Below are positions 5,855 through 55,560 of a DNA stretch of 64,000 nucleotides, one piece after another (positions within the stretch are counted from its first letter, which is position 1; every line of letters starts with the position of its first letter). Source of the stretch: Leucoraja ocellata (lineage: Eukaryota); NCBI GenBank assembly GCA_036785375.1, contig JAWMAR010000424.1, positions 558,001-622,000 on the forward strand, written 5' to 3'. The notes below the pieces were generated by a model that worked only from the letters and a program-made list of their open reading frames with translations, was not told the DNA's origin and made no database searches. The translations under genes and the position numbers were made by a program.

Positions 5855-6298
5855 TTCCTCCAAAGATCACTGGATCCAATGGACATCAAACCATGCAACA
5901 TCTTGAAAAAGAAATGGCCACTTGGTGGGTTTGTCCATTCCGACCTCGTGAAAATATAATTCGCTTATACCTAAGGAGGAAGGGGGAAATATATGACATG
6001 AGAAATACTATTTTAGATTGGGACAGCAGAAAATCTACTGAAAACAGAAATGGAAAGATCAACGGAGAGGGTCACAATGAAGCGAGCATTCTTATGAATT
6101 CAAATTATGTCAATGCATCTTTTACACCATTGGAACCCAAATATGACACTGATGCAGATGGGTTTTCCAGTGTGATGATCAATGTGGAAATATATCCAGA
6201 TGTTAACCAGGATGCAGGGGCTGAATTAACCATTGAAGTTCAACATAAATCACTGAAACAGCCGATATCAAACACTTTGATACTGGATGTTAAAGGAG
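5855..6298 (+). CDS. Gene A: post-TM Ig C1-like domain 1 (both canonical Cys lost; long internal insertion)
   Basis: ctag|TTCCTCCAAAG ... GGAG|gtaaag, 444 nt, phase 1-1, in frame with ORF 5893-6309. Motifs VPPKI, TWWVCPFRP (vs CxVxGFxP), DGFSSV, LTIEVQHKSLKQPI (vs YxCxVxHxSLxxP). Confidence 0.85.
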
Positions 6299-9776: not shown

Positions 9777-10154
9777 TGCCACCCAAGGTTTCAAACATCT
9801 TCAAACCCTCCTGCATCATTCACAATGAATCTACATCTTTGATCTGTTCAATCACTGGGTTTAAACCGAGACCTTTACGTATCACGTGGCAACGAAAGAG
9901 AAAGAACATGGAGGCAGAAGAAATAGTTCGAATGGAGGAGGACAACAGGACAACTATTCACGGTGGTGACGGGGAGATGTCCACATATAAACATTACATC
10001 AGTGAGATGAAGCATGATGATGAATCCTACAGCATCACTAGTGTACTAGAGATAGTGCCTGATATACAGCAAGATCAACACTCGCTTTACACCTGTAAAG
10101 TACATCACAGCGGCACCAGTGACCAGGAGAGAGAAATCAAGTTAATGATTGCAG
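9777..10154 (+). CDS. Gene A: Ig C1-set domain 2 (both Cys present)
   Basis: tcaaag|TGCCACCC ... GCAG|gtatat, 378 nt, phase 1-1. Motifs LICSITGFKP, ITW, YSITSVL, YTCKVHH. Confidence 0.9.
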
Positions 10155-11069: not shown

Positions 11070-11378
11070 TCATTCCAAAAGTGGAATTAAAGTGCCACAC
11101 AGACAAGATACTTGATGGTGTACCCATGACGATAAGCTGTCAAATAAATGCGTTTTACCCCAAAGACATCACAGTGAAATGGCTGAAAAACGATGAAGAG
11201 ATGTTGCAGAATTTCAAAGTTGCTGAGCCAGTAATTGGTCAGGACGGTCTCTATCATGTGGCAAGTGATGTGGAGATAGTCCCCACCAGGGCTGAGTCAA
11301 CAGCCAAATATACATGCCGAGTGTCCCATTCGAGCCTCACTGAGCCATTACACATTGAATGGGTTGCAGGTGAAATAG
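11070..11378 (+). CDS. Gene A: Ig C1-set domain 3 (both Cys present)
   Basis: tttcag|TCATTCCA ... ATAG|gtaggt, 309 nt, phase 1-1; an alternative in-phase donor lies at 11369. Motifs ISCQINAFYPKDITVKW, DGLYHVAS, YTCRVSHSSL. Confidence 0.92.
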
Positions 11379-15244: not shown

Positions 15245-15577
15245 TTTCATTGCCAGAGCTTACAGCAATTGAGGTCGATCCACTTTGCCCCGAAATGGGA
15301 AAGGAAGTAACACTCTCCTGCAAAGCTTACGGATTCTATCCTGAAGCAAATGAGATATTCTGGTTCAAAGACTTTGAGAAAGTGAAAGATCCATTCAAAG
15401 TAGGAATTACTCTGGGACCAAATGAACTGGACACAGAGAATGGTTGCTATTCACGTTTATCCAAGTGGAAATTCACACCAGCTGCTGTTGACCATGGAAA
15501 AGAATTTAAGATGAAAGTCCTTCATTCTACAACTTCAGGCAACCCCAACGCTTCCAGTTACACTTTAAAATTAAAAG
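15245..15577 (+). CDS. Gene A: Ig C1-like domain 4 (F-strand Cys replaced by Met)
   Basis: ctccag|TTTCATTG ... AAAAG|gtgaat, 333 nt, phase 1-1. Motifs VTLSCKAYGFYP, IFW, ENGCYSRLS, FKMKVLH. Confidence 0.9.
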
Positions 15578-16504: not shown

Positions 16505-16816
16505 GGATTCCAATCGTCGACGACATTAAGTATGAGCCACTAGTGGCTGCGTCTGGTTCGCAACATCGTCTCGTCTGCAAAGTTGATAACTTTTATCCAA
16601 AACAAATCAGAACAAGCTGGCTACGTAAAGGGAAACCAATATCCCATGGAGTCGAAGATGCAGTTATGAATGAGGATGAGAATGGATGTTTTCAGATGTG
16701 GTCCTCTTTGCGTATTAATCCAACTGATCTACAATTTGATGAAAAGATTTCCTTTCAAGTGAAGCATTCAAGGTTAAATACTCCAATAACAAAACAACTG
16801 TCTTTAAAACTTCCAG
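16505..16816 (+). CDS. Gene A: Ig C1-like domain 5 (F-strand Cys replaced by Phe)
   Basis: caacag|GGATTCCA ... TTCCAG|gtatgt, 312 nt, phase 1-1. Motifs LVCKVDNFYPKQIRTSW, ENGCFQMWSSL, ISFQVKHSRL. Confidence 0.9.
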
Positions 16817-19712: not shown

Positions 19713-20030
19713 CTTTGCCTCCTACCTTATCTCCTATCACAAATGACCCGGCTCCAGGGCTACTGAAAGTGAAGCAAGCTGTTAATCTCGGAGTCTCCTT
19801 GACATCCTATGTTCCTGCTCAAATCCAAGACAAGTGGCTTCTAGATGGGGAGCTTTGCCAAGGAAGGTGTGAATGCTCTCCTGAGATCACAGATGATGGT
19901 TTGTTTTAATCTAATTTGAGCATAATGTTGGAGGCAGGAATAAGTGATCACAGAAGGTTGCATCAAATGTCAGGTGCTTCATGTGAGGGCAGAAACATTC
20001 AGGAGAAGGAATTCCAATTACTCTCTGAAG
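19713..20030 (+). pseudogene. Gene A: disabled Ig C1-like exon (pseudo-exon)
   Basis: Reads (A)LPPTLSPI...SLTSYVPAQIQDKW...TDDGLF* with an in-frame TAA at 19907-19909. The F-strand motif IKCQVLH lies in a shifted frame. The donor GAAG|gtgaat is intact, but the acceptor reads tcaa instead of tcag and abuts an LTR ending at 19708. Confidence 0.75.
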
Positions 20031-21948
20031 GTGAATCTTACTCATATTATGTTCAGCATGACATTTCATTAAAGTTAGAACTGCAATGTTGATGTTAGTG
20101 TAGAGATACAACGTGGAAACAAGCCCTTCGGTCCACCGTGTCCACGCTGACAATTCATCATCCGTTCACACTAGTTCTATGTTATCCCACTTTCTCATCC
20201 ACCCGACACACTAGGGGGCAATTTACAGAGGGCCAATTAACTAACAAACCCACATGTGTACAAGATTCGGACACATATGATTCATTTATTTATAAATATT
20301 TACACTTTATAAATATTCTTGTTTTGTTGTTTTTGTTTTTTGTATGTAGTATTTTTTTTAAATCTGTTCGAAATGAATAATAATAATAAATAATTAATAA
20401 ATAAATCTTAAGAGGAATAGATCGGGTGGACGCATTGCGTCTCTTGCCCAGAGTTGGGGGAATCGAGGACCAGAGGCCAAACGTTTAAGGTGAGGGGGGT
20501 TTAATAGGAACTGAGAGGGGTAACTTTCTAACACAAACATTGCAATCAGAGGTAGTTGAGGCAGGGACTATTGCAATGTTTAAGAAACATTTAAACAGGT
20601 ATTTGGATAGGATAGGTTTAGAGGGCTAAATGCAGGCAGGTGGGTCTAGTGTAGATACGGCATGCTGGTCGGAGTGGACAAGTTGGGACAAAGGGCCTGT
20701 TTAAACAATGTATGACTATGACTCTTTGTCTTTGGGATGTAGGAAGAAACCCGCACGTTCACAGGGGGGAATGTGCAAACGCCACACAGACAGCACCGGT
20801 GGTCAGGATCGAACCCGGGTCTCTGGCGCTGCGCCACTGTGCCGTCCCTTCTCACTTCAAACTTTACACTAGATTTATTTGATTGTCTCTTTCACAACAA
20901 AGTTTCACGCTGAATAAATTAGCTTTATTTTTTACTGATGTTGAAAATAGATGCAGTTGTTTAAAATCAGCTTGGGTGAGACACTTAGTCAAAGATCACT
21001 GAAACAGGCCCTTCGGCCCAACTTGCCATTGTCAACCAAGGTGCCCCATCTAAACTAGTCCCACCTGCCCGCGATTGGCCATCTTCTATCCATCTATACT
21101 ATTGACCACTTACGGTCTGCGTTGTAACTACATTTGCGCAAAAATGATCCCCCATAGCGCTACGATTGTTCGCCACCTTACTCACCATTCTCCTCAGCTG
21201 CAAGTCAAATAGGTTTTGTCCCGAACGGTGAAATATTCTGTGAGCAGGGATCCACACCACCCCTTCCCACATGCACACCCTCCCCTACCCCAACAGCCCC
21301 CCACACCCTCCCTCCCCTACACCCCCCACATACACGCCCCTCCCCAACACCTCACCTCCCCTTCAACCCCACCTTTCCCACACCCACCCCATCCCCCACA
21401 CTCCCCCTTACCACACATGCCCCTCCCCCCACTGCACACACCCCCCCTCTACTCCCACCATCCCCCGTACCCCCACCATCCCCCCCCCCCCTACCCCCAC
21501 CATCCCTACCCCCACCCCCATGAGGTTGGAGGAGGTGCTGGTGAACCTCTGCCTCAGCTGGAATGACTGCTTGGGTCCTTGGATGGAGTCGAGGGGGGAG
21601 GTAAAGCGACATGTGTAGCGTTTCCTGCGGTTGCAAGGGAAAGTACCAGAGGAAGGGGTGATTTGGGTAGGGAGGGACAAATTGACCAGGGAGTTGGTTC
21701 AGGTAATCCTTGCTTTCACCCTCCTTCCCCTTCCCTTCACTGCTCTCCCACAGCCTACTCTCTCCACATCTTCCTCCCTTTTTCCCGCCCCAACCCCCCC
21801 ACATCAGTGTGAAGAAGGGTCTCGATCCAAAACGTTTCCTATTCCTTCGCTCCATAGATGCTGCCTCACCCGCTGAGTTTAGATTTTTCCAGCATCTGCA
21901 GTTCCTTCTTAAACATCAGGTTTAATTAAGCTCTTTTTTATTCTGCAG

Positions 21949-21993
21949 ATTATGACAAAAACGAAAATGATGTCAATGAAAAAGTCGATGAAG
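21949..21993 (+). CDS. Gene A: 45-nt micro-exon copy 1 (DYDKNENDVNEKVDE)
   Basis: ttttttattctgcag|ATTATG...GATGAAG|gtaaaa; 45 nt, phase 1-1, no stop. Confidence 0.75.
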
Positions 21994-22986
21994 GTAAAAT
22001 TCTTCATTTCCAATAGTTACTGTATTTTGAATGTTTGCTTCAAGTAGAAATTTAGATCATTACGCATGATCCAAATGTTTTCAAAATGGGTGGGGCAGCA
22101 CCTATGGAACAAAGGAATAGGCGACGTTTCGGGTCGAGACCCTTCTTTAGACTGATGTGGGCGGGGCGGTGTGGCGGGGAAAAAAGGAAGATGTGGAGAC
22201 AGTAGGCAGTGGAAGAGCTGGAAGGGGAGGGGAAGGAGGGTGAAAGCAGGGACTACCTGAAATTGCAGCAGTCAATGTTCAGACCGCTGGGGTGTAAACT
22301 ACCCAAGTAAAATATGAGGTGCTGTTCCTCCAATTCGCTCTGGACATGGAGGAGGCCCAGGACAGAAAAGTTGGATTTGGAATGGGAGGGGGAGTTGATG
22401 TGCTGAGCCACCGGGAGATCAGGTTGGTTATTGCGAACTGTGTGGAGGTGTTGGGCGAAGCGATCGGCAAGCCTGCGCTTGGTCTCACCGATATAGAGTA
22501 GTTGACACCTGGAACAGCGGATGCAATAGATGAGGTTGGAGGAGGTGCAGTTGAACCTCTGCCTCAGCTGGAATGACTGCTTGGGTCCTTGGATGGAGTT
22601 GAGCGGGGAGGTAAAGCGAAATGTGTTGCGTTTCCTGCGGTTGCATGGGAAAGTACCAGAGGAAGGGGGCGATTTGGGTAGGGAGGGACAAATTGACCAG
22701 GGAATTGGTTCAGACAGTCCTTGCTTTCACCCTCCTTCCCCTCCTCTTCACAGCTGTCCCACAGCCTACTCTCTCCGCCTCTTCCTTCCTTTTTCCCGCC
22801 CCCCCCCCCCCCCCCCCCATCAATGTGAAGAAGGGTCTCGACCCAAAACGTTCTCTATTCCTTCGCTCCATAGATGCTGCCTCACCCGCTGAGTTTCTCC
22901 ATCATTTTTATCTACCTTTGTTTTGTCCAACATCTGCAGTTCCTTCTTAAACATCAGGTTTAATTAAGCTCTTTTTTATTCTGCAG

Positions 22987-23031
22987 ATTATGGCAAAAAC
23001 GAAACTGATGTCAATGAAAAAGTCGATGAAG
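22987..23031 (+). CDS. Gene A: micro-exon copy 2 (DYGKNETDVNEKVDE)
   Basis: ctgcag|...|gtaaaa; 45 nt, phase 1-1. Confidence 0.72.
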
Positions 23032-23526
23032 GTAAAAGTCTTCATTTCCAATAGTTACTGTATTTTGAATGTTTGCTTCAAGTAGAAATTTAGATCATTA
23101 CACATGATCCAAATGTTTTCAAAACACAAAGTGCTGGAGGAACTCGGTGGCTCAGGCAGAATCTGGAAGGAATGTTTAGTTTAGAGATAGAGCTCATAAA
23201 CAGGCCCGTCGGTCAACCGAGTCCGCACCGACCAACGATCACCACACACTAACAATATCCAATACTCTAGGGACAATTTATAATATTTACCGATTCCTCC
23301 AAATCTGCACGTGTTTAGAGTGGGGGAGGTATCCGGAGAAACCCCTCGTGGTCATGGGGAATGTCCAAACTCCACACAGACAGCACCTGTGGTCAGGATG
23401 GAGCCCGGGTCTCTGGTGCTGTGAGGCAGCAACTCTACCGCTGCGCCACTGTGCCGCCCGTTATCTCTTCAAACTTTACACTAGATTTATTTGATTGTTT
23501 CTTTCACAACAAAGTTTCATGTTGAA

Positions 23527-25570
23527 AGGAAATCGTAAAAATTGTAAAGAGCCATGGTTTTCAAGGGAAATTGGACACTTGGTTCGGAAAAAGAGGGAGA
23601 TCTACAATAATTATAGGCAGCATGGAGTAAATGAGGTGCTTGAGGAGTATAAAGAATGTAAAAAGAATCTTAAGAAAGAAATTATAAAAGCTAAAAGAAG
23701 ATATGAGGTTGCTTTGGCAAGTAAGGTAAAAGTAAATCCGAAGGGTTTCTACCGCTATATTAATAGCAAAAGGATAACGAGGGATAAAATTGGTCCATTA
23801 GAGAGTCAGAGTGGACAACTATCTGCAGAGCCAAAAGAGATGGGGGAGATATTGAACAGTTTCTTTTCTTCGGTATTCACCAAGGAGAAGGATATTGAAT
23901 TATGTGAGGTAAGGGAAACAAGTAGAGTAGCTATGGAAACTATGAGGATCAAAGAAGAGGAAGTACTGACACTTTTGAGAAATATAAAAGTGGATAAGTC
24001 TCCAGGTCCGGACAGGATATTCCCTAGGACATTGAGGGAAGTTAGTGTAGAAATAGCAGGGGCTATGGCAGAAATATTTCAAATGTCATTAGAAACGGGA
24101 ATAGTGCCGGAGGATTGGCGTACTGCGCATGTTGTTCCATTGTTTAAAAAGGGGTCTAAGAGTAAACCTAGCAATTATAGACCTGTTAGTTTGACGTCAG
24201 TGGTGGGCAAATTAATGGAAAGAATACTTAGAGATAATATATATAAGCATCTGGATAAACAGGGTCTGATTAGGAACAGTCAACATGGATTTGTGCCTGG
24301 AAGGTCTTGTTTAACTAATCTTCTTGAATTTTTTGAAGATGTTACACGGGAAATTGATGAGGGTAACGCAGTGGATGTTGTGTATATGGACTTCAGTAAG
24401 GCCTTTGACAAGGTTCCTCATGGAAGGTTGGTTAAGAAGGTTCAATGGTTGGGTATTAATGGTGGAGTAGCAAGATGGATTCAACAGTGGCTGAATGGGA
24501 GATGCCAGAGAGTAATGGTGGATGGTTGTTTGTCAGGTTGGAGGCCAGTGACGAGTGGAGTGCCACAGGGATCTGTGTTGGGTCCACTGTTGTTTGTCAT
24601 GTACATCAATGATCTGGATGATGGTGTGGTAAATTGGATTAGTAAGTATGCAGATGATACTAAGATAGGTGGGGTTGCGGGTAATGAAGTAGAGTTTCAA
24701 AGTCTACAGAGAGATTTATGCCAGTTGGAAGAGTGGGCTGAAAGGTGGCAGATGGAGTTTAATGCTGATAAGTGTGAGGTGCTACATCTTGGCAGGACAA
24801 ATCAAAATAGGACGTACATGGTAAATGGTAGGGAATTGAAGAATGTAGGTGAACAGAGGGATCTGGGAATAACTGTGCACAGTTCCCTGAAAGTGGAATC
24901 TCATGTAGATAGGGTGGTAAAGAAAGCTTTTGGTGTGCTAGCCTTTATAAATCAGAGCATTGAGTATAGAAGTTGGGATGTAATGTTAAAATTGTACAAG
25001 GCATTGGTGAGGTCAATTCTGGAGTATGGTGTACAATTTTGGTCGCCTAATTATAGGAAGGATGTCAACAAAATAGAGAGAGTACAGAGGAGATTTACTA
25101 GAATGTTGCCTGGGTTTCAACAACTAAGTTACAGAGAAAGGTTGAACAAGTTAGGGCTTTATTCTTTGGAGCGCAGAAGGTTAAGGGGGGACTTGATAGA
25201 GGTTTTTAAAATGATGAGATGGATAGACAGAGTTGACGTGGAAAAGCTTTTCCCACCGAGAGTAGGGAAGATTCAAACAAGGGGACATGACATGAGAATT
25301 AAGGGACTGAAGTTTAGGGGTAACATGAGGGGGAACTTCTTTACTCAGAGAGTGGTAGCTGTGTGGAATGAGCTTCCAGTGAAGGTGGTGGAGGCAGGTT
25401 CGTTTTTATCATTTAAAAATAAATTGGATAGTTATATGGATGGGAAGGGAATGGAGGGTTATGGTCTGAGCGCAGGTACATGGGACTAGGGGAGATTATG
25501 TGTTCAGCACGGACTAGAAGGGTCGAGATGGCCCGTTTCCGTGCTGTAATTGTTATATGGTTATATGGTT
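23527..25570 (+). mobile_element. Young 5'-truncated CR1 LINE with an uninterrupted RT ORF
   Basis: 664-aa ORF 23495-25489 with [27 protein letters not shown]; (GTTATATG)n tail. Absent from the sister repeat units, which read ...gttgaataaagtagttatat. Confidence 0.95.
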
Positions 25571-26242
25571 AAAGGAGTTATATTTGTTACTGATGTTGTC
25601 AATAGATGATTTTGGATGTTCAGTTGTTTCAAATCTGCTTGGGTGTCATAGATCACGGGAAAAGGCCCTTCGGCCCAACTTGCCCTTGTCAACCAAGGTG
25701 CCCCATCTAAACTAGTCCCACCTGCCCGATTGGCCCATATCCCTCTGAACCTATCCTATCCATGTTCCTGCCCAAGTGTTTAATACTCTGACTTTGTAAG
25801 TGCCAATTTGATTTGACTAATGTCAGGTTTAATAGTAAGATTAAACGAGAACTTACCAGTTTGAAGTTTGATCTTGATTTTATGAGGAGTTACGATGAGC
25901 GATTACGTGAAGAAGGGCCGTCCGTCTGCGTGCGCGTCAATCTTCAAAGCAGCGGTGTTAAATCACAGATAAAAAGAAGACCTGAGAATAGTAAGATTGA
26001 AGAAACTAGAACTTCCATGTGACCTTGATAGTATGAAGGTGGGAGCGGTGGGCACGTAATCACTCATCGTAACTCCTCATAAAATCAAGGTCAAACTTCA
26101 AACTGGTAAGTTCTCGTTTAATCTTACTATTTTACTTTGGAGTCACGTGAGTGACTACGTGAAGATTTCAAAGCTCTGTGATTTTACGCCGGTTACGAAT
26201 CCAGGCATCACACACTGAATGGATTGACCATGGATGCGTGTA

Positions 26243-26885
26243 ATCAAGTCAAGTTTATTTGTCACATACACATACGAGATGTGCAGTGAAATGAAAGTGG
26301 CAATGCTCGCGGACTTTTGTGCAAAAGACAAACAACCAAACAAATTATAAACACAATCATAACACACATATTCTTTTACATAATAAATAATGGAAGGAAA
26401 AACGTTCAATAGAGTTAGTCCCTGGTGAGATAGGCGTTTACAGTCCGAATGGCCTCTGGGAAGAAACTCCTTCTCAACCTCTCCGTTCTCACCGCATTGC
26501 AACGGAGGCGTTTGCCTGTCCATAGCAGCTGGAACAGCCCGTTGCAGGGGTGGAAGGGGTCTCCCATGATTTTATTTGCTCTGGAGTTGCACCTCCTGTT
26601 GTATAGATCCTGCAGGGGGGCGAATGAAGTTCCCATAGTGCGTTCGGCCACTACTCTCTGCAGAGCCTTCTTGTCCTTGGCAGAGTAATTCCCAAACCAG
26701 TTGGTAATATTTCCGGACAAGATGCTTTCCACCGCCGCTGCGTAGAAGCACTGGAGGATCCTCGGAGACACTCTGAATTTCCTCAATTGCCTGAGGTGGT
26801 AAAGGCGCTGCCTTGCCTTACTCACGAGTGCTGATGCGTGTGATGCCCACGTCATATCCTCGGAGATGTGGACTCCCAGATCATT
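26243..26885 (-). mobile_element. Rex1/Babar- or L2-type LINE 3' fragment nested in DIRS
   Basis: KARQRLYHLRQLRKF, VESILSGNITNWFG, RLRRSFFPEAIR; (TTGAC)n tail. Confidence 0.75.
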
Positions 26886-27629
26886 AAAGCATTCAGACAT
26901 TACGTAGTTAAGTAAAGAAACTGATGCTTTAAATGAAAGAAAAGTTTTTTAAAAAGTTACCCCTCCCAACCTTGGGGGGGAAACTAAGGGACAGAACTTA
27001 AAATGGTACGTGCAAACACCCCCAGTCCGGTTATGGGTTTGTTATAAAACCGGTGGACCGTTATTTCATTCGTCCATCCTGCAGCCACTAGGATGTCGTC
27101 AAGGGGCACGTCCATAGATCTTGCTGCTGACGTAGATGCAGCCCTGGTGGAGTGAGATTTAACCATATAAATGTTTACTCCTGCTACCGCCATTACCTCT
27201 TTTGACCATCTGGAGATGGTTTGAGTTAACACCTTTTGGTGTGGTTTTTTTATGGCTGATGAGGACCGATTGTTCTGAGCCTCCGTAACTCTCAGATAGC
27301 GGTGTTAGTATGTTACCACCCACACAACCGTTGGTCCTCTGGATATGCCAAGAACTGGATCTCCATCCCTGGCATTCCTGGCCTGCTCTGTTTATCAGGT
27401 TCCTGATTAGGAATGTTATGTTGTTCATATTGGTGGTCATGTAGTCCAACCGTAGCTTTTGCAATGTCTGGACTCTGTCAGCATACCACCTTCAGGGTTA
27501 GTTATAGGCGCTCCCCACTGTCAAAGTAGGATTTGTACCATGCTCACATCCCATGTGTCAGTGTACCTTGGCCTTGGAGGTCTTAAATTGTAAATTCCCT
27601 TCATGAATTTTGTTGTAAAGGGGTGCGTT

Positions 27630-28097
27630 CCATATAACAATTACAGCACGGAAACAGGCCATCTCGACCCTTCTAGTCCGTGCCGAACACATAATCTCCC
27701 CTAGTCCCATATACCTGCGCTCAGACCATAACCCTCCATTCCCTTCCCATCCATATAACTATCCAATTTATTTTTAAATGATAAAAACGAACCTGCCTCC
27801 ACCACCTTCACTGGAAGCTCATTCCACACAGCTACCACTCTGAGTAAAGAAGTTCCCCCTCATGTTACCCCTAAACTTCAGTCCCTTAATTCTCAAGTCA
27901 TGTCCCCTTGTTTGAATCTTCCCTACTCTCAGTGGGAAAAGCTTTTCCACGTCAACTCTGTCTATCCCTCTCATCATTTTAAAAACCTCTATCAAGTCCC
28001 CCCTTAACCTTCTGCGCTCCAAAGAATAAAGCCCTAACTTGTTCAACCTTTCTCTGTAACTTAGTTGCTGAAACCCAGGCAACATTCTAGTAAATCT
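27630..28097 (-). mobile_element. CR1 3' fragment nested in DIRS (same subfamily as 23527-25570)
   Basis: Near-identical to the 3' end of the 664-aa ORF (PGFQQLSYRERLNKLGLYSLERRRLRGD). Confidence 0.9.
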
Positions 28098-31000
28098 ATC
28101 GAACTGTGCCCTGCTTCCGGCATCAGATAGGAGGAGAGTGCGCCTCTGGCACAATAGATGCACTATAACTTAGTTTATAGTTATAGTACAGTTAATAGGA
28201 ACTGCAAGACATCCGTTATCCGAACTGTGTTGTATTTGTTCGGACAGTCCTATGCCTTGAAATGGCCTCTTCAGAATCTGCAGACTAACAAGTTATACGT
28301 TCATGTAGTGGATGATTGCTCCCTGTAACTGGGTTCACTAGGAGGTCCCTGCTCTTGGGTACAGCCATTACTGGCTGGACTATAATTCCCAACATTTTTG
28401 GGGACCAGGCTTGAGTAGGCCAATCTGGCACTACCAATATGCCTGTGGCTTAGTCTTGCTTGATTTTTGTCAAGCATCGGTTTGTGAGACAAATTGGCGG
28501 AAAGTATACATAAACATTCCTCCCCAATTGAGGGAGAAAGCATCCACTGCCTTGCTCCTGGATCCAGCTCGCAGGACACATATCTGGGTAACTAATGGGT
28601 AGTCTAGAAGCAAATGGATCAACATCTGGTATGCCAAATCGTGTATTTATTTTGTTAAATACTGCCTGATTCAACATCCATTCTGTGTTGTTATTAAACA
28701 TTCGGGATCCAGCATCTGTCACCGTGTTATATCTACCTCGTAGATTTCCCAAATATTCCTCTCGATACACCAGTGCCAAATGAGGTTCGACAATCTGTCA
28801 TAAGATACAGATTTTACACCACCCTTGTTAATGGATATATGCCACCGCAGTGGTGTTATCAATCTGAATTTGAACAAGCACCGGTTGTATATTGCTACAG
28901 AAACCCTTGAGTCCATATTGTGCCCCCAACAATTCTGGGTAATTGATTCCATATGTTGGGGAATTACAGACTCCTGCTCATTCCATCTGCCCCCACAGCT
29001 CTAGACTGTGTTGGTGGCTCCCCTTAGCCGCTGGCATAGGTCTGAAGAACCCTCAATGGCTTTCAAGCAAAATTTCCCTGAGCTGTCTCCCATTCGTTAT
29101 CCACCATAGTTATCCAACAATGGCCTCTGCTGACAATCCAGTTTTGCCAATTCAGCCTGCATGTAATCTGAGTGTTCGTTCCTTTGCTTGCTGTAAGTTC
29201 TGGTAATGCAAAGGCCCGTACTGCTGGGAATGCAGCTACTATTTCCCAATTACACTCGCTGTTTGCCTGATAGATGGCTAGTATTTGACTATCAGGTCAT
29301 TGCAGGCTGAATTAATATTGTTGTTTGCCCCTAGGCAAAGTCACCAACATATTTACTGTTTTTGATAGTAAATTCTAGGTAATCAATTACCCTTGTAGGT
29401 GTCAATTTTGATTTAACTGGATGAATGAGGTAACCAATTCTTTCAAACAGGGTTTTGGTTTGCTTGACTGATGCTTCTGCCAATTCTTGGTGACTCCAAA
29501 ATGGAAATGTCCTCCAAATATGCCATTACCATGTGGTTTTGAGACCTTTGTAGTCCCAGAATTGGTTTCCGTAGTTTAGTCAATAGTCTAGGAGCTGATG
29601 AAAACCCATTTGGCAGAGCCATGCCATCCAGTTAAACTTCAAATATCTCCTGTTCTTAATGAATAGACACCGAATAGTATGCATCTTTGAGGTCGATGCA
29701 TGCCATGTGACCATTTTATAGGAAGCTCCTATAAAACAGTAGTTAGACCGTAACAAAAAATTGCTGTTTCTAAAAGTCTGTACTGCACAAATGAGTTAAA
29801 CCTGGATGAAATGACATCCTCCATCTGTCACCTGTCCTGGAAGGCAATCCTGCCCAAAATACTGGGCCTGCCTTGAAGACAATTCCAGTCCGAGTTCTAA
29901 GCCTGCTTGGAACCTATGTATGTTGTGCAGTAAAAAATAATCACATGTTGTTATCTGTTTTTTAAAACCAGATCTGAAATTCATGTTATTATCATTTTGA
30001 ACAAAAACACAAGAGTAAATTACCAACATGTAACTGGTCCATAATCCCTTGTTTCGGTAAACCCAGATCCACCTACCTCCATGGCTACCGGTGGTCTTGT
30101 GGTAAGCCCAAAGGCCCCTGATGCGGGTTCCTTTTCTCTCCTTGATTGGGAGTAGGTCTGGTAGGGAGTGTGGATTCCATGTTTCTCCTGACCTCTGCTT
30201 GGGTCTTGGTCTGAAAACCTTATCATACTGAGCCTGCCTTGTCGGACAATTCTGGCCATAATTCTGAGTCTGCCTTGAAAGACGACTGATCATATTTCCG
30301 TGCCCAGCTTTCAAGCTACCACCGGCTTCAGTGAACTGCTTACCCCCTATGGAGGTGTGGGGTGTGTTGTCGCCTACTGACGAAGTTTTGCTTGTCGTTG
30401 GTACCTTGATTGGTCCGACAGCTTTTGCTTCCTTCTTCTGGTCTTACCTGAAGATAGGATTCGACGGCTGGTTTCTCCAAAGTCACCCTGATAGCGCTGT
30501 TCCCTTGCCGGCATTTGTGCGGATATTCTGCCAACTGCTGTCTCTTGAGGCCATATGCATGTGCTTCAGTATGTTCATACTTTAATTCGAGATCAGTTAC
30601 CTACTGATCTCGAAGCCAAATTTCGTTTGAACGTTATGTGAGGTTCAAATGACAAATGAATGGTATTGTATAGTATTGTAATTCAAGATCAGTTACCTAC
30701 TGATCACTCACACTCCTCTCCATTGAGAGTGAGATTTGTAGGTAGCCCTGAAAACAGGGGCTGCCGCAGGCCCCTGAGGATACCTGCGCTGACATGGCCC
30801 CTCCAGCGGGCCTAAATGAGATTCTTGCTTTGGGTCAGACTGAAACTGACAGTGAATGCTCCTCTCCTCAGAGCAGGAGACATTTTCTAGATCTCTATCC
30901 AGGGAAGCACCCAGTGGAACCTGGGTGATTGCAGAAGTATTTCTTTTCTTTTGTGCTTATTATTTATTTTATGTAAAGCTTTTTGGTGCAAGTTAACTTA

Positions 31001-32712
31001 AACAGTGCTATATAAGTAAAAGTTACTTCCTTTCTTCTGCTTGTCCCTGGGAAGGTCCCCCCCCCTGCTTTTGTACTCTGCTTCAGAGTGGTTTCTTCCA
31101 TATGTACTTCCCCCTCCAATGGGGAAGACATTGGGTTGCCCCATTATGCGAGGCTCCCGGTACTGCCTGCTGCTGTAGGCCCCGGGCTGACACCGCTCTC
31201 TCCTTAGAGCAGATCATTGTTGGAGCAACTTCTCCAAAAGTTGCTCCTATGTGGGAGAGTCGTCCTCAGACACTCTCCGTTGAGGGAGGGTATCCCTTTC
31301 CATCCCCGGACTCTTCTGAGTCAACGGGTTGTTTGACTTGCGGGTGGATTTTCCCATACTGCAGGACCCCCAACGGAGCTCTCCTCCTGCAACAAGTCTC
31401 CTGCCGGCTCAGCTGCCGGCGCTGTGTCGGGAAACAGTTATGGTCTGAACGCAGGTGTATGGGACTAGGGGAGAATACGTGTTCTGCACGGACTGGAGGT
31501 GTCGAGATGGCCTGTTTCCGTGCTGTAGTTGTTATATGGTTATATGGTTAAACACCGTCGCCCGCTACTGGGAAATGCTGCGGTCTTCGGCAGCCGACTT
31601 CCCCGCGGACCGTATCCTCGACATCTGGGCCCTGAAACTACAAAAAGTTTCAAGCCCGAAAGAACGAGGTAAGTGTTTCAACTTTCCTTACCTGCCCATC
31701 CTAACGGCCTGGGAGAATGCAGTGCTTCTCCAGTCCATCGCACGTTGCGTTCAGACGTAATGACGCGCACGCAGACGGACGGCCCTTGTTCACGTATTCA
31801 CGTAAAATTAAAGGTAGACAAAAATGCTGGAGAAACTCAGTGGGTGGGGCAGCATCTATGGAGCAAAGGAATAGGCGACGTTTCGGGTCGAGACCCTTCT
31901 TTAGACTGATGTGGGCGGGGCGGTGTGGCGTGGAAAAAAAGGAAGATGTGGAGACAGTAGGCAGTGGAAGAGCTGGAAGGGGAGGGGAAGGAGGGTGAAT
32001 TCAAGGACTACCTGAACTTGGAGAAGTCAATGTTCATACCGCTGGGGTGTAAACTACCCAAGTAAAATATGAGGTGCTGTTCCTCCAATTTGCTCTGGAC
32101 ATGGAGGTGGCCCAGGACTGAAAAGTCGGATTCGGAATGGGAGGGGGAGTTGATGTGCTGAGCCACCGGGAGATCAGGTTGGTTATTGCGAACTGTGTGG
32201 AGGTGTTGGTGAAGCGATCGACAAGCCTGCGTTTGGTCTCACCGATATAGAGTAGTTGACACCTGGAAAAGCGGATGCAATAGATGAGGTTGGAGGAGGT
32301 GCAGGTGAACCTCTGCCTCAGCTGGAAAAACTGCTTGGGTCCTTGGATGGAGTCGAGGGGGGAGGTAAAGCGACAAGGGAAAGTACCAGAGGAAGGGGGC
32401 GATTTGGGTAGGAAGGGACGAATTGACCAGGGAATTGGTTCAGACAGTCCTTGCTTTCGCCCTCCTTCCGCTCCCCTTCATAGCTGTCCCACAGCCTACT
32501 CTCACTGCCTCTTCCTTTCTTTTTCCCGCCCCAGCCCCCCACATCAATGTGAAGAAGGGTCTCGACACAAAACGTTCCCTATTTCCTTCGCTCCATAGAT
32601 GCTGCCTCACCCGCTGAGTTACTCCAGCATTTTTGTCTACCTTCGTTTTTTCCAGCATCTGCAGTTCCTTCTTAAACATCAGGTTTAATTAAGCTCTTTT
32701 TTTATTCTGCAG

Positions 32713-32757
32713 ATTATGGCAAAAAAGAAAATGATGTCAATGAAAAAGTCGATGAAG
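32713..32757 (+). CDS. Gene A: micro-exon copy 3 (DYGKKENDVNEKVDE)
   Basis: ctgcag|...|gtaaaa; 45 nt, phase 1-1. Confidence 0.72.
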
Positions 32758-34402
32758 GTAAAAGTCTTGATTTCCAATAGTTACTGTATTTTGAATGTTT
32801 GCTTCAAATAGAAATTTAGATCATTACACATGATCCAAATGTTTTCAAAACACAAAGTGCTGGAGGAACTCGGTGGCTCAGGCTGAATCTGGAAGGAATG
32901 TTTAGTTTAGAGATAGAGCTCATAAACAGACCCGTCGGCCAACCGAGTCCGCACCGACCAACGATCACCACACACTAACAATATCCAATACTCGAGGGAC
33001 AATTTATAACTTTTACCGATGCCAGTTAACCTCCAAATCTGCACGTGTTTAGAGTGGGGGAGGTATCCGGAGAAACCCCACGTGGTCATGGGGAATGTCC
33101 AAACTCCACACAGACAGCACCTGTGGTCAGGATGGAGCCCGGGTCTCTGGTGCTGTGAGGCAGCAACTCTACCGCTGCGCCGCCCGTTATCTCTTCAAAC
33201 TTTACACCAGATTTATTTAATTATTTCTTTCACAACAACTTTTCATGTTGAATATTTGTTACTGATGTTGACAATAGATGATTTTGGATGTTCAGTTGTT
33301 TCAAATCTGTTTGGGTGTCATAGATCACGGGAAAAGGCCCATCGGCCCAACTTGCCCTTGTCAACCAAGGTGCCCCATCTAAACTAGTCCCACCTGCCCA
33401 CTATTGGCCCATATCCCTCTGAACCTATCCTATCCATGTTCCTGCCCAAGTGTTTAATACTCTGACTTTGTAAGTGGCAATTTGATTTGACTAATGTCAG
33501 GTATAATTAAAGGGAGACAAAATTGCTGGAGAAACTCAGTGGGTGAGGCAGGATCTATGGAGCAAAGGAATAGGCGACGTTTCGGGTCGAGACCCTTCTA
33601 TAGACTGATGTGGGCGGGGCGGTGTGGCGGGGAAAAAAAGGAAGATGTGGAGACAGTAGGCAGTGGAAGAGCTGGAAGGGGAGGGGAAGGAGGGTGAAAG
33701 CAAGGACTACCTGAAATTGGAGAAGTCAATGTTCATACCGCTGGGGTGTAAACTACCCAAGTAAAATATGAGGTGCTGTTCCTATAATTTGCTCTGGACA
33801 TGGAGGAGGCCCATGACAGAAAAGTCGGATTCGGAATGGGAGGGGGAGTTCAAGTGCTGAGCCACCGGGAGATCAGGTTGGTTATTGCGAACTGTGTGGA
33901 GGTGTTGGGCGAAGCGATCGACAAGCCTGCGCTTGGTCTCACCGATATAGAGTAGTTGACACCTGGAACAGCGGATGCAATAGATGAGGTTGGAGGAGGT
34001 GCAGGTGAACCTCTGCCTCAGCTGGAAAGATGCTTGGGTCCTTGGATGGAGTCGAGGGGGGAGGTAAAGTGACAAGGAAAAGTACCAGAGGAAGGGGGCG
34101 ATTTGGGTAGGAAGGGACGAATTGAACAGGGAATTGGTTCAGACAGTGCTTGCTTTCGCCCTCCTTCCCCTCCCATTCATTGCTGTCCCACAGCCTACTC
34201 TCACTGCCTCTTCCTTTCTTTTTCCCGCCCCACATCAATGTGAAGAAGGGTCTCGACCCAAAACGTTCCCTATTTCCTTCGCTCCATAGATGCTGCCTCA
34301 CCCGCTGAGTTTCTCCATCATTTTTATCAACCTTTAATTTTTCCAGCATCTGCAGTTCCTTCTTAAACATCAGGTTTAATTAAGCTCTTTTTTATTCTGC
34401 AG

Positions 34403-34447
34403 ATTATGGCAAAAAAGAAATTGATGTCAATGAAAAAGTCGATGAAG
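34403..34447 (+). CDS. Gene A: micro-exon copy 4 (DYGKKEIDVNEKVDE)
   Basis: ctgcag|...|gtaaaa; 45 nt, phase 1-1. Confidence 0.72.
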
Positions 34448-35739
34448 GTAAAAGTCTTCATTTCCAATAGTTACTGTATTTTGAATGTTTGCTTCAAGTA
34501 GAAATTTAGATCATTACACATGATCCAAATGTTTTCAAAACACAAAGTGCTGGAGGAACTCGGTGGCTCAGGATGAATCTGGAAGGAATGTTTAGTTTAG
34601 AGATAGAGCTCATAAACAGGCCCGTCGGCAAACCGAGTCCGCACCGACCAACGATCACCACACACTAACAATATCCAATACTCTAGGGACAATTTATAAT
34701 TTTTACCGGTGCCAATTAACCTCCAAATCTGCACGTGTTTAGAGTGGGGGAAGTATCCGGAGAAACCCCACGTGGTCATGGGGAATGTCCAAACTCCACA
34801 CAGACAGCACTAATTAAAGGGAGACAAAAATGCTGGAGAAACTTAGGGGGTGAGGCAGCATCTATGGAGCAAAGGAATAGGCGACGTTTCGGGTCGAGAC
34901 CCTTCTTTAGACTGATGTGGGCGGGAGGTGTGGCGGGGAAAAAAGGAAGATGTGGAGACAGTAGGCAGTGGAAGAGCTGGAAGGGGAGGGGAAGGAGGGT
35001 GAAAGCAAGGATTACCTGAAATTGGAGAAGTCAATGTTCATACCGCTGGGGTGTAAACTACCCAAGTAAAATATGAGGTGCTGTTCCTATAATTTGCTCT
35101 GGACATGGAGGAGGCCCAGGACAGAAAAGTCGGATTCGGAATGGGAGGGGGAGTTGATGTGCTGAGCCACCGGGAGATCAGGTTGGTTATTGCGAACTGT
35201 GTGGAGGTGTTGGGCGAAGCGATCGACAAGCCTGCGCTTGGTCTCACCGATATAGAGTAGTTGACACCTGGAACAGCGGATGCAATAGATGAGGTTGGAG
35301 GAGGTGTAGGTGAACCTCTGCCTCAGCTGGAATCACTGCTTGGGTCCTTGGATGGAGTTGAGGGGGGAGGTAAAGCGACATGTGTAGCGTTTCCTGCGGT
35401 TGCAAGGGAAAGTACCAGAGGAAGGGGGTGATTTGGGTAGGGAGGGACAAATTGAACAGGGAATGGATCCAGGTAGTCCTTGCTTTCACCCTCCTTCCGC
35501 TCCTCTTCACAGCTGCCCCACAGCCTACTCTCTCCGCCTCTTCCTTCCTTTTTCCCGCCCCAACCCCCCACATCAATGTGAAGAAGGGTCTCGACCCAAA
35601 ACGTTCCCTATTCCTTCGTTCCATAGATGCTGCCTCACCCGCTGAGTTTCTCCATCATTTTTATCTACCTTTGTTTCGTCCAGCATCTGCAGTTCCTTCT
35701 TGAACATCAAGTTTAATTAAGCTCTTTTTTATTGTGCAG

Positions 35740-35784
35740 ATTATGGCAAAAAAAGAAATGATGTCAATGAAGACGCCGATGAAG
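35740..35784 (+). CDS. Gene A: micro-exon copy 5 (DYGKKRNDVNEDADE)
   Basis: gtgcag|...|gtaaaa; 45 nt, phase 1-1. Confidence 0.72.
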
Positions 35785-37447
35785 GTAAAAGTCTTGATTT
35801 CCAATAGTTACTGTATTTTGAATGTTTGCTTCAAGTAGAAATTTAGATCATTACACATGATCCAAATGTTTTCAAAACACAAAGTGCTGGAGGAACTCGG
35901 TGGCTCAGGCTGAATCTGGAAGGAATGTTTAGTTTAGAGACAGAGCTCATAAACAGGCCCGTCGGCCAACCGAGTCCGCACCGACCAACGATCACCACAC
36001 ACTAACAATATCCAATACTCTAGGGACAATTTATAACTTTTACCGATGCCAGTTAACCTCCAAATCTGCACGTGTTTAGAGTGGGGGAGGTATCCGGAGA
36101 AACCCCACGTGGGCATGGGGAATGTCCAAACTCCACACAGACAGCACCTGTGGTCAGGATGGAGCCCGGGTCTCTGGTGCTGTGAGGCAGCAACTCTACC
36201 GCTGCGCCACTGTGCCGCCCGTGATCTCTTCAAACTTTACACTAGATTTATTTGATTATTTCTTTCACAACAAAGTTTCATGTTGAATAAAGTAGTTATA
36301 TTTGTTACTGATGTTGACAATAGATGATTTTGGATGTTCAGTTGTTTCAAATCTGCTTGGGTGTCATAGATCACGAGAAAAGGCCCTTCGGCCCAACTTG
36401 CCCTTGTCAACCAAGGTGCCCCATCTAAACTAGTCCCACCTGCCCACGATTGGCCCATATCCCTCTGAACCTATCCTATCCATGTTCCTGCCCAAGTGTT
36501 TAATACTCTGACTTTGTAAGTGGCAATTTGATTTGACTAATGTCAGGTATAATTAAAGGGAGACAAAAATGCTGGAGAAACTCAGTGGGTGAGGCAGCAA
36601 CTATGGAGCAAAGGAATAGGCGACGTTTCGGGTTGAGACCCTTCTTTAGACTGATGTGGGCGGGAGGTGTGGCGGGAAAAAAAGGAAGATGTGGGGACAG
36701 TAGGCAGTGGAAGAGCTGAAAGGGGAGGGGAAGGAGGGTTAAAGCAGGGACTACCTGAAATTGGAGAAGTCAATGTTCATACCGCTGGGGTGTAAACTAC
36801 CCAAGTAAAATATGAGGTGCTGTTCCTCCAATTCGCTCTGGACATGGAGGTGGCCCAGGACAGAAAGGTCGGATTCGGAATGGGAGGGGGAGTTCAAGTG
36901 CTGAGCCACCGGGAGATCAGGTTGGTTATTGCGAACTGTGTGGAGGTGTTGGGCGAAGCGATCGACAAGCCTGCGCTTGGTCTCACCGATATAGAGCAGT
37001 TGACACCTGGAACAGCGGATGCAATAGATGAGGTTGGAGGAGGTGCAGGTGAACCTCTGCCTCAGCTGGAATGACTGCTTGGGTCCTTGGATGGAGTTGA
37101 GCGGGGAGGTAAAGCGACAAGGGAAAGTACCAGAGGAAGGGGGCGATTTGGGTAGGAAGGGACGAATTGAACAGGGAATTGGTTCAGACAGTCCTTGCTT
37201 TCGCCCTCCTTCCCCTCCCCTTCACTGCTGTCCCACAGCCTACTCTCACTGCCTCTTCCTTTCTTTTTCCCGCCCCACATCAATGTGAAGAAGGGTCTCG
37301 ACCCAAAACGTTCCCTATTTCCTTCGCTCCATAGATGCTGCCTCACCCGCTGAGTTTCTCCATCATTTTTATCTACCTTTGTTTTGTCCAGCATCTGCAG
37401 TTCCTTCTTAAACATCAGGTTTAATTAAGCTCTTTTTTATTCTGCAG

Positions 37448-37492
37448 ATTATGGCAAAAAAGAAAATGATGTCAATGAAAAAGTCGACGAAG
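37448..37492 (+). CDS. Gene A: micro-exon copy 6 (DYGKKENDVNEKVDE)
   Basis: ctgcag|...|gtaaaa; 45 nt, phase 1-1. Confidence 0.72.
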
Positions 37493-38297
37493 GTAAAAAT
37501 CTTCATTTCCAATAGTTACTGTATTTTGAATGTTTGCTTCAAATAGAAATTTAGATCATTACACATGATCCAAATGTTTTCAAAACACAAAGTGCTGGAG
37601 GAACTCGGTGGCTCAGGATGAATCTGGAAGGAATGTTTAGTTTAGAGACAGAGCTCATGAACAGGCCCGTCGGCCAACCGAGTCCGCACCGACCAACGAT
37701 CACCACACACTAACAATATCCAATACTCTAGGGACAATTTATAACTTTTACCGATGCCAATTAACCTCCAAATCTGCACGTGTTTAGAGTGGGGGAGGTA
37801 TCCGGAGAAACCCCACGTGCTCATGGGGAATGTCCAAACTCCACACAGACAGCACCTGTGGTCAGGATGGAGCCCGGGTCTCTGGTGCTGTGAGGCAGCA
37901 ACTCTACCGCTGCGCCACTGTGCCGCCCGTGATCTCATCAAACTTTACACTAGATTTATTTGATTATTTCTTTCACAACAAAGTTTCATGTTGAATAATG
38001 TAGTTATATTTGTTACTGATGTTGACAATAGATGAGTTTGGATGTTCAGTTGTTTCAAATCTGCTTGGGTGAGACACTTAGTCATAGAGTCATAGTTCAC
38101 GGGAAAAGGCCCTTTGGCGCAACTTGCCCTTGTCAACCAAGGTGCCCCATCTAAACTAGTCCCACCTGCCCGATTGGCCCATATCCCCCTAAATCTATCC
38201 TATCCATGTTCCTGCCCAAGTGTTTAATACTCTGACTTTGTAAGTGCCAATTTGATTTGACTAATGTCAGGTTTAATTAAACTCTTTTATTCTTCAG

Positions 38298-38342
38298 ATA
38301 ATGGCAAAGCAAAAAATGATGTCAGTGAAGAAGTCAATAAAG
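38298..38342 (+). CDS. Gene A: micro-exon copy 7, most divergent (DNGKAKNDVSEEVNK)
   Basis: ttcttcag|ATAATGG...AATAAAG|gtaaaa; 45 nt, phase 1-1. Confidence 0.75.
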
Positions 38343-39521
38343 GTAAAAATCTACATTTCCAATAGTTACTGTATTTTGAATGTTTGCTTCAAATAGAAAT
38401 TTAGATCATTACACATGACCCAAATGTTTCCAAAACACAAAGTGCTGGAGGAACTCGGTGGGTCTGGCTGCATCTGGAGGTAATGTTTAGTTTAAAGATA
38501 GTGCTCAGAAACAGGCACTGTAGCCCACTGAGTCCGCACCGACCAACGATCACACATACTAACACTATCCAATACTCCAGGGACAAATTATAATTTTTAC
38601 CAATGCCAATTAACCTCCAAACCTGCACGTCTTTGGAGTGTCGGAGGAAACTGGAGAAACCCCACGCAGTCACAGGGAGAACGTACAAACTCCGTACAGA
38701 CAACACTCATAGTTAGGATCCAACTCTGTGACTGTACAGCAGCACCTCTACCGCTGCATCACGGTGCCGCCCGAATAGATAGACGCGCTTTGGGTTGGGA
38801 ACCTTCTTCAACCTCAGAGTCTAACGAAGGTCAGACGGATTGTAGGGAGGAGGAAAATGCTGTAAAAGAGGAGGGGCAGGAGAAAGCCTGGCAGGTAATA
38901 GGTTGTCACAGGTGAGGGTGCTTTTTGATAAGCAGGTGGAGATAAAAACAATCCTTTTGTGTTACACCTTCTGTATCAGCCCATTACCTGCTAGGCTTTG
39001 AACTGCCCCTCCTCTCTTCCAGCATTCCTCTCCCCCTACAATCAGTGAAGAAGGGTCCCGTACCAAAACATCACCTATCCATAATCCCCTCGATGCTGTC
39101 AGACCCGCTGACATACTCCTGCACTCTGTGTCTTTTTTTTGGTATGCGAGTGTGTGATTCACCATGTTCATAAGTATCTAGAAAGGGGGAAGTTAGTCCA
39201 GGGGAGTGTCTTTGTAGTGGATATGATATTTTTATGCATTTTCATTAGTGAAGCTTGAAGGTTTGAAGCTAACTTAGTTATTTTAGAAATACAGTGTGGA
39301 AACAGACCTTTCAGCACATTAAGTCATCCATACACTAGTTCTATCCGTTACTCGAGGGACAATTTACATGAAAGCAATTAACCTACAAACGTGCACATCT
39401 TTGGAGTGCAGGAGGAAACCGGAGCACCCGGATAAAATCCACATGGTCACAGGGAGAATCCATGAACTCCATCCAGACAGCACCCATAGTCCGGATCGAA
39501 CCCGGGTCTCTGGCGCTGTAG

Positions 39522-43084: not shown

Positions 43085-43386
43085 AAAAGTTGAAGGTGGT
43101 TTCAAAGATAACATGCCGTCCAGAGAAACCTAAGGCTGGGCACCCTGTAATGCTGTCCAGTGAAGTTCGAGACGCAAGTGCAGATCAAGCCCATATCATC
43201 TGGTACAAAGATACTTACCCTTTTGATGAACATCGGTATGTTACAAACACGCCATTTGAAAATGAATATGGTTTCACTACGACTTTAACTTACACACCAA
43301 AGGAAGCAGATGGCAATCATATCCAAGTTTTCATTGATGTTAACATGGAAGAACATGTGAGAGATTTCGCCTTGATATTAAGTTGA
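43085..43386 (+). CDS. Gene A: terminal exon, Ig-like domain lacking both canonical Cys, ends at TGA
   Basis: ccaacag|AAAAGTTG, phase 1, frame of ORF 43033-43386. Motifs PKAGHPVMLSSEV, HIIWYKD, FTTTLTYTP resemble domain 4 (PEMGKEVTLSC, IFWFKD, WKFTP). Confidence 0.82.
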
Positions 43387-55418: not shown

Positions 55419-55560
55419 CCTGGAGCTCCATCCACGGTCCAGACCTGGAGCTCCATCCACGGTCCAGACCTGGAGCTCCATCCACGGTCCAGACCTGGAG
55501 CTCCATCCACGGCCCGACCTGGAGCTCCATCCACGGCCCGGACCTGGAGCTCCATCCACA
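55419..55560. repeat. 25-bp tandem repeat (CCTGGAGCTCCATCCACGGTCCAGA)
   Basis: About 5.5 copies visible. Confidence 0.85.

Follow-up and report, generated by a model that had tools for sequence, protein, structure and literature searches.

We analysed a 64,000-nt stretch of genomic DNA of the skate Leucoraja ocellata (in the following the window; all coordinates are given on its forward strand), which harbours seven short exons repeated in tandem within a gene of immunoglobulin (Ig) type. In our reading, held with reasonable though not high confidence, an old linker exon within the cytosolic tail of a B7-H6-like type I membrane protein underwent a lineage-specific expansion here. The array originated from a crossover between two short interspersed nuclear elements (SINEs), and its copies would be spliced in series to yield a disordered spacer. 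Presence and flexibility of the spacer presumably matter, whereas its exact sequence and copy number appear largely tolerated rather than tuned.

The linker exon array and its host gene

All seven copies (Table 1) are 45 nt long and free of stop codons in phase 1, with a pyrimidine tract and CAG on the 5' side and GTAAAA on the 3' side. The initial annotation had described them as stop-free AG/GT exons of phase 1-1, and both the exons and their positions are real. This includes copy 5, which is still exactly 45 nt long despite an altered A-run (KKRN). The shifted A-run may reflect two substitutions or a compensated pair of indels. Copies 1-6 begin with DY and copy 7 with DN, and the splice signals of copies 1-6 are intact and essentially identical. 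As a 45-nt exon of phase 1-1 keeps the frame, any copy number can be read through.

The start-to-start spacings are 1038, 9726, 1690, 1337, 1708 and 850 bp, whereby the 9.7-kb gap between copies 2 and 3 is made up of one unit, a 2-kb long interspersed element (LINE) and a 6-kb DIRS-like insertion. The earlier description of duplicated units of ~1-1.7 kb, consisting otherwise of Penelope and SINE sequence, therefore needs correcting: spacings range from 850 to 9726 bp, the unit of copy 7 has no Penelope and part of the unit is unique intron. Such repetition greatly exceeds what chance would give (E 1e-58 to 1e-98). No eighth copy was found by BLASTN, which gave seven, or by an ungapped scan of both strands, which gave seven and one chance match of 38/70. 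Tandem Repeats Finder misses the array because its period exceeds 500. An assembly artefact was ruled out, given that the copies are 3-8% apart with copy-specific indels, that there are no N gaps between 12811 and 48623, and that the array occurs in three other skate assemblies. No structured RNA was matched by Rfam in 16800-47000.

The seven copies encode 105 aa which are 39% acidic and 18% basic (net charge -22) and contain neither Pro nor Cys. An AlphaFold model of domain 5, four repeats and the terminal domain of L. erinacea, built with a 17-sequence alignment, shows two confident beta-sandwiches. The predicted local distance difference test score (pLDDT) is ~90 in the domains and <50 over residues 106-162 between them. 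Foldseek returned antibody Fc C1 pairs for the model. Folding the terminal exon from its sequence alone gave a poor model (pLDDT 49.7), which was not used. An acidic, disordered linker between Ig domain 5 and the terminal domain had been proposed before, and the low pLDDT and a FoldIndex of -0.62 uphold it. Hence the last Ig-like domain would be tethered by a disordered spacer of up to 105 aa to the cytosolic Ig chain ahead of it.

The flanking exon ends at 16816 and 43085 had been placed correctly. Three proteins among 18 candidates matched the terminal exon, namely LOC129705966 of Leucoraja erinacea (100%), LOC116984368 of Amblyraja radiata (98%) and LOC144602191 of Rhinoraja longicauda (80%). 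The seven exons of the host gene in the window agree with L. erinacea in 37/38, 144/147, 122/125, 102/102, 108/110, 97/103 and 99/99 residues. Six of them are thus 97-100% identical to LOC129705966, and all are closer to L. erinacea than to Amblyraja. The orthologues consist of a signal peptide, one or two V-C1 pairs, one transmembrane segment (TM), five or six Ig-type domains, the repeats and a last Ig-type domain. The V-C1 ectodomain is doubled in the rajid proteins, and the ectodomain exons of the host gene lie upstream of the window.

With V and C1 domains ahead of a single TM, the orthologues have the layout of type I membrane proteins. Compared with solved structures, the ectodomain of the Rhinoraja orthologue matches human B7-H6 best (E 4e-32), followed by CD276 (E 1e-17); alligator NCR3LG1 behaves likewise (B7-H6 3e-47, CD276 5e-19). 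The closer relation to B7-H6 than to other B7-family proteins was seen among solved structures only. Alligator NCR3LG1 is moreover colinear with the skate protein over 884 columns comprising ectodomain, TM and tail (E 5e-86). Relatives of the terminal exon are found in coelacanth, lungfish and frog proteins as well as in alligator and lizard proteins named NCR3LG1. Of ten relatives looked up, one nematode I-set protein was unrelated and was dropped. Based on these comparisons, the host gene is B7-H6-like and probably an ortholog of NCR3LG1. No syntenic marker gene was found within the window. Further downstream lies a B7-family paralogue on the plus strand with a leader exon (56224-56299) and a V-set exon (58437-58793; V-set E 1e-9, best solved matches CD276 and B7-H6), which suggests a tandem cluster.

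In 22 of 23 proteins a single strong hydrophobic segment follows the signal peptide, usually with basic residues behind it; the 23rd, a partial catshark protein, was omitted from the domain totals. Chimaera, sharks, rays, coelacanth, lungfish, frogs, lizard and alligator all exhibit 5-10 post-TM Ig-type domains. Both canonical cysteines are present in 47/47 Ig domains before the TM vs 55/148 behind it, and, compared domain by domain, the positions that have lost them are largely the same from chimaera to alligator. Such a loss is predicted by a reducing, cytosolic location. Since every Ig domain around the array follows the TM exon, the spacer would be cytosolic as well, as would the whole post-TM Ig chain. 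The post-TM region of the sawfish gave generic C1-set clusters only in the ESM Atlas (0.88-0.90).

The initial annotation was right in reading the copies as exons of the Ig gene. It overlooked that the gene has a TM exon and an ectodomain of B7-H6 type, that the Ig domains lie on the cytosolic side, that a sixth Ig exon is dead and that the linker is old.

Origin of the array from flanking mobile elements

A full unit of the array measures 1,724 bp, of which a Penelope fragment makes up 861 bp (about half) and SINE-type sequence ~500 bp, the remainder being unique intron. The family names CR1, DIRS, Penelope and SINE are labels which we take to fit the observed anatomies. For Penelope the label is backed by a GIY-YIG match, for the SINE by tRNA-type A and B boxes in three internal copies.

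A chimeric SINE follows copies 2, 3, 5 and 6. To the left it resembles the SINE behind copy 7 (SINE B), to the right the SINE region upstream of copy 1 (SINE A), and the right part continues into the unique sequence found beyond SINE A. The left side shows 84-91 B-like sites vs 7-8 A-like ones and the right side 46-72 A-like vs 6-11 B-like sites. The best switch point is identical in 4/4 units tested (20755-57 in the upstream and 38666-68 in the downstream SINE). These were units 2, 3, 5 and 6; units 1 and 4 were excluded, as deletions remove the junction there. The two parent SINEs are 73% identical over 124 core columns. Chimeric SINEs with a common switch point are the signature of a single unequal crossover. 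In copies 1-6 the Penelope fragment lies within a 14-nt target-site-like duplication and ends ~33 nt upstream of the acceptor; copy 7 has an empty site. Penelope thus entered the left copy after the first duplication and was carried along.

These junctions show that the exon was first doubled by an unequal crossover of its two flanking SINEs, which are ~73% identical. A Penelope fragment then inserted just upstream of the branch point of the left copy. The resulting 1.7-kb unit of Penelope and exon was amplified to six, with the Penelope-free copy staying last, followed by later deletions and two further insertions. The EDADE variant (copy 5) is present in Amblyraja and missing from the L. erinacea models, which implies that copies were lost as well as gained. 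The earlier proposal of a transposon-laden tandem duplication stands insofar as transposons took part, namely in the SINE-SINE crossover founding the array; Penelope was only a passenger. Alu-type non-allelic homologous recombination is the known precedent, likewise giving tandem duplications with a junction chimeric for the two flanking SINEs. Unlike in these duplications, a symmetric coding exon was here duplicated without harm and seeded further amplification.

Table 1. Positions of the host gene exons, linker exon copies and mobile elements in the window.
Feature	Position	Strand	Remark
Transmembrane exon, phase 1-1	965..1078	+	tblastn to L. erinacea X1 residues 478-522, E 2e-17; 37/38 aa identical
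Post-TM Ig-like domain 1, no canonical cysteines	5855..6298	+	144/147 aa as in L. erinacea; no Pfam match alone; aligns as Ig domain
Post-TM C1-set domain 2, both Cys	9777..10154	+	PF07654 E 5.8e-13
Post-TM C1-set domain 3, both Cys	11070..11378	+	PF07654 E 1.5e-17
Post-TM C1-set domain 4, F-strand Cys lost	15245..15577	+	PF07654 E 9.7e-8
Post-TM C1-set domain 5, F-strand Cys lost	16505..16816	+	PF07654 E 1.3e-13; donor splices to array
Dead exon, post-TM Ig domain 6	19713..20030	+	AG acceptor missing, stop in frame; 62% identical to Rhinoraja residues 897-1002
Upstream SINE A and following unique sequence	20700..21080	.	Supplied the right half of all junction SINEs; crossover near 20755-20757
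Linker exon copy 1 (DYDKNENDVNEKVDE)	21949..21993	+	Splice-site and frame inspection
Linker exon copy 2 (DYGKNETDVNEKVDE)	22987..23031	+	Splice-site and frame inspection
5'-truncated non-LTR retroelement (presumed CR1-type), in unit 2	23527..25569	+	Unit homology ends 23526, restarts 25570; RVT_1 E 4.7e-34
DIRS-like element (label presumed from anatomy), nested insertions, in left target-site copy of unit 3 Penelope	25831..31799	-	Inverted repeats
Linker exon copy 3 (DYGKKENDVNEKVDE)	32713..32757	+	Splice-site and frame inspection
Linker exon copy 4 (DYGKKEIDVNEKVDE)	34403..34447	+	Splice-site and frame inspection
Linker exon copy 5 (DYGKKRNDVNEDADE)	35740..35784	+	EDADE variant, present in Amblyraja too
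Penelope fragment, unit 6	36555..37415	-	GIY-YIG E 1.4e-4; ~200-nt inverted repeats; 14-nt target-site-like duplication around; likewise ahead of copies 1-5
Linker exon copy 6 (DYGKKENDVNEKVDE)	37448..37492	+	Splice-site and frame inspection
Chimeric junction SINE, unit 6	37586..37929	-	tRNA-type A and B boxes; switch at 37817-37819
Linker exon copy 7 (DNGKAKNDVSEEVNK)	38298..38342	+	Oldest split; no Penelope upstream
Downstream SINE B	38485..38773	-	Supplied the left half of all junction SINEs; crossover near 38666-38668
Terminal coding exon with stop codon; Ig C1-like fold lacking canonical cysteines	43085..43386	+	100% to L. erinacea; AATAAA at 43474, 43520

Further features of the locus touch the elements and exons listed. 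The LINE in unit 2 is young and truncated, with an uninterrupted reverse-transcriptase frame of 664 codons (23495-25486, plus strand), and an inverted 470-bp piece at 27630-28097 is 98% identical to its 3' end. The inverted repeats of the DIRS-like element are 25831-25909/26053-26131 (97%) and 25901-25939/31761-31799 (95%); its Phage_integrase (tyrosine recombinase) match is weak, with E 0.007 below the curated cut-off. A longer Penelope remnant at 3200-5660 has reverse-transcriptase-like and GIY-YIG frames, is ~78% identical to the array fragments and is interrupted by a LINE piece. An element resembling a long terminal repeat (LTR) element (17626-19708; direct repeats 17626-17778/19530-19698, 82%) ends at the acceptor of the dead exon. 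Pfam gave no match for three further frames of the DIRS region nor for two fragments of the element before the dead exon, so that the labels of both elements rest on repeat anatomy.

The exon for post-TM Ig domain 6 is intact and optionally skipped in the Rhinoraja models and missing from the Leucoraja and Amblyraja models. Post-TM domain 3 ends with two in-frame donors 9 nt apart (11369/11378), of which the orthologue models take the later one. A 270-aa fragment entry departs from the gene after post-TM domain 2 and ends in a 45-aa C-terminus for which the window gave no match. A minisatellite with a period of 23 bp (40503-40999) lies in the gene's last intron. Other minisatellites are located at 56406-57278 (22/66 bp), 55419-55559 (25 bp) and 49127-49300 (37 bp).

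Linker variation, selection and competing explanations

The repeats are contained in 22/22 named skate RefSeq entries from three species with 3-8 copies each, which supports the copies being exons of the Ig gene. Four, five and six copies occur in 3, 1 and 4 entries of L. erinacea, three or four in 2 and 1 entries of A. radiata and seven or eight in 2 and 9 entries of R. longicauda. The seven copies in the window thus compare with maxima of 6, 4 and 8, respectively, in the models. The array is closed by the copy-7 type in 11/11 rajid entries. According to this annotation several copies would be spliced in series. A mutually exclusive cassette with one copy per transcript was rejected, as at least three copies are present in each of the 22 entries, all of them predictions.

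Outside skates the linker is present in a less uniform manner. Exon boundaries in these species were deduced from a periodicity of 15-16 aa and from isoform differences. Pristis, Narcine and Callorhinchus have one unit of 15-21 aa between the last two domains, Heptranchias one or two units of 16 aa. Three to five units of other sequences are found in Hemitrygon, Hypanus and Mobula, and one Hypanus paralogue exhibits six units which are basic rather than acidic. Frogs, alligator and lizard have linkers of 19-31 aa at the corresponding position, where Xenopus proteins have none. Units are more alike within a lineage than between lineages. A short linker at this place is old, and it was multiplied with differing sequences in skates, stingrays and a shark. 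The variable length anticipated by the initial annotation is indeed seen among annotated isoforms and among species, with 3-8 copies in skate models and 1-6 units in other chondrichthyans.

Among the copies, 14 of 15 distinct codon changes are nonsynonymous, with 38/45 sites being nonsynonymous. Purifying selection on the linker peptide was not seen among the copies. Pairwise divergence of copies 1-6 amounts to 0.077 in the exon vs 0.051 in the Penelope part, and to 0.052 vs 0.042 without CpG. Comparing the exon with the next 87 nt of intron suggests positive selection; the comparison with the Penelope part gives none. In a simple simulation the neutral probability that all seven copies stay intact is 0.07-0.55 depending on the assumed rate. 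These values are somewhat high, since 0-0.005 indels per site were used and the unit alignment has 17 gap intervals in 1,779 columns. The intactness of all copies goes only weakly beyond chance. Seemingly the peptide drifts as if neutral, and the data fit a tolerated spacer.

Several observations weigh against a merely tolerated, serially spliced cytosolic spacer. Variable sites are denser in the exon (15/45) than in the next 87 nt of intron (7/87, p 4e-4), also when only copies 1-6 are considered (9/45 vs 4/87, p 0.01), and recurrent expansion in several lineages fits selection too. The RefSeq isoforms are predicted, and where exons are nearly identical, apparent skipping can stem from ambiguous read mapping. 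Among 7,760 candidates for transcript-derived short fragments or proteins spanning the array none passed. Coelacanth and lungfish proteins have no linker at this position, which makes it dispensable in some lineages. With regard to topology, N-glycosylation sequons persist behind the TM (0.2-1.0 per 100 aa, at lower or similar density), and post-TM domains 2-3 retain both cysteines.

The first two of these points lead to a reading in which the array is an adaptive tether. Here copy number and skipping would set the reach of the terminal Ig-like domain, and the repeated expansion would be due to selection, e.g. by pathogen antagonists of a natural killer (NK) cell ligand. It draws on the expansions, unlike in sequence, that skates, myliobatiform rays and Heptranchias underwent separately, on annotated isoforms differing by whole units and on the excess variability of the exon over its flanks. 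Moreover all seven copies are intact although the neighbouring Ig exon decayed, and a short NCR3LG1-like paralogue of Hypanus, in which the cytosolic Ig chain is missing, retains a linker unit straight after the TM. However, the exon diverges nearly as the Penelope part does and its intactness has the appreciable neutral probability given above. Whole Ig exons of the host gene were erratically multiplied as well, which suggests a general instability; in stingray paralogues the cytosolic Ig exons are tandemly multiplied to 10 (Hypanus) and 8 (Mobula) post-TM domains. We consider adaptive tuning unlikely, though compatible with the data. In a further reading only one or two copies, such as copy 7, would normally be spliced and the rest would be recent pseudo-exons yet to decay; the absence of transcript-derived fragments across the array speaks for it. 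Copies 1-6 are young, with units 3-8% apart, and their intactness requires no selection. Their well-preserved, near-identical splice signals and the at least three copies in every named skate entry render this very improbable.

Two further readings assign a function to particular residues. The initial annotation had pointed to Tyr in an acidic context as a possible phosphorylation array, i.e. DY motifs serving as Src- or Syk-family sites on a multivalent SH2 platform. That six copies carry the Tyr (DY) is correct; acidic residues just precede it at the junctions, the Tyr is retained in Leucoraja and Amblyraja copies, and the region is predicted to be cytosolic and disordered. Yet all 8 Rhinoraja copies have Cys and copy 7 has Asn instead, and the linkers of Pristis, Narcine, Callorhinchus, Hemitrygon and Mobula have no Tyr. 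To our knowledge Y-G-K-K/N fits no common SH2 consensus. Immunoreceptor tyrosine-based inhibitory, switch and activation motifs (ITIM, ITSM, ITAM) are absent behind the TM in 4/4 chondrichthyan proteins scanned (Leucoraja, Rhinoraja, Pristis, Callorhinchus), which also means that a human-type tail is not matched there; the alligator protein gave two loose matches to these patterns. A phosphotyrosine array is hence very improbable. Still less credit is given to a protease-cleavable linker, in which an Asp-rich site of caspase or granzyme type would free the terminal Ig-like domain and more copies would provide more sites. V-D-E-D and similar Asp motifs at the junctions, D-E-V-D in Callorhinchus and D-Y-C-D-S in the lizard linker conform to the known cleavage preferences of these proteases. 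In contrast, one Hypanus paralogue is basic with few Asp and frog linkers are not acidic. The tolerated spacer of a B7-H6-like protein thus remains the reading we favour.

Comparable systems and implications

The repeated hinge exon of IgG3 has 15 codons too, and the hinge it encodes is extracellular, rich in Pro and Cys and disulfide-linked. The skate array resembles human IGHG3 in being a series of short, symmetric tandem exons between Ig constant-type domains (by annotation) with variable copy number. IGHG3 has 2-4 hinge exon copies according to the part of PMC11844466 considered here. The array differs by its acidic composition without Pro or Cys, its location behind the TM and a unit of 0.85-1.7 kb vs 188 bp. 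Elasmobranch UrIg2, an Ig protein with several C1 domains known from sharks and rays, likewise shows tandemly duplicated exons, repeats that are homogenised and short hinge exons specific to batoids (PMC12227049). The two are alike in C1 domains and short hinge exons; however, its C domains and proline-rich hinges precede the TM and its first domain is of VJ-type. UrIg2 is a separate gene with only a weak match (E 3e-17). By analogy the array works like the IGHG3 hinge without being a member of the hinge or the UrIg2 class.

C1-set Ig domains are typically extracellular and found in proteins of adaptive immunity. Butyrophilins join a B7-type ectodomain to a folded cytosolic module and offer an analogy only, having one B30.2 domain each vs the chain of Ig C1-type folds in the skate protein. 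The human B7-H6 tail is probably Gag-derived. With B7-H6 (NCR3LG1) the skate protein shares the V and C ectodomain and the single TM, and the alligator and lizard relatives as well as the short Hypanus paralogue bear the NCR3LG1 name. It differs in a tail of 6-7 Ig-type domains and the array. According to PMC8509619, human B7-H6 combines a V/C ectodomain with a tail in which SH2/SH3-binding motifs and an ITIM occur.

The chain architecture itself is well supported. Going further, an ordered cytosolic chain of C1-type Ig domains, mostly lacking the canonical disulfide and carrying a tethered terminal domain, might represent an undescribed ancestral B7-H6 machine of jawed vertebrates. It could act as an intracellular sensor, scaffold or decoy linking cell state to the display of the NKp30 ligand, and would have been replaced in mammals. 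We regard this extension as speculative and rather doubtful. The literature searched yielded no paper that treats the array or reports Ig domains in the cytosolic part of B7-H6, yet the most relevant earlier work lies outside this coverage, so that the novelty of the tail is unproven. The cytosolic Ig tail is not described in the sections considered of PMC6514059, PMC11599192 and PMC10751288, and one supplementary file of the elephant shark paper (PMC3964593) does not contain the term B7H6 in the part considered.

The locus offers a clear, datable origin of a hinge-like exon array, with a SINE-SINE crossover, a passenger insertion marking the order of events and subsequent amplification. Array formation was seemingly repeated separately in other sharks and rays. 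The natural length variants of 1 to 8 units could be used for asking whether spacer length matters. The larger oddity is the presence of C1-set domains behind the membrane anchor of a B7-H6-type ligand, from chimaera to alligator. If this tail has a function, the picture of the role of the ancestral NKp30 ligand would change.

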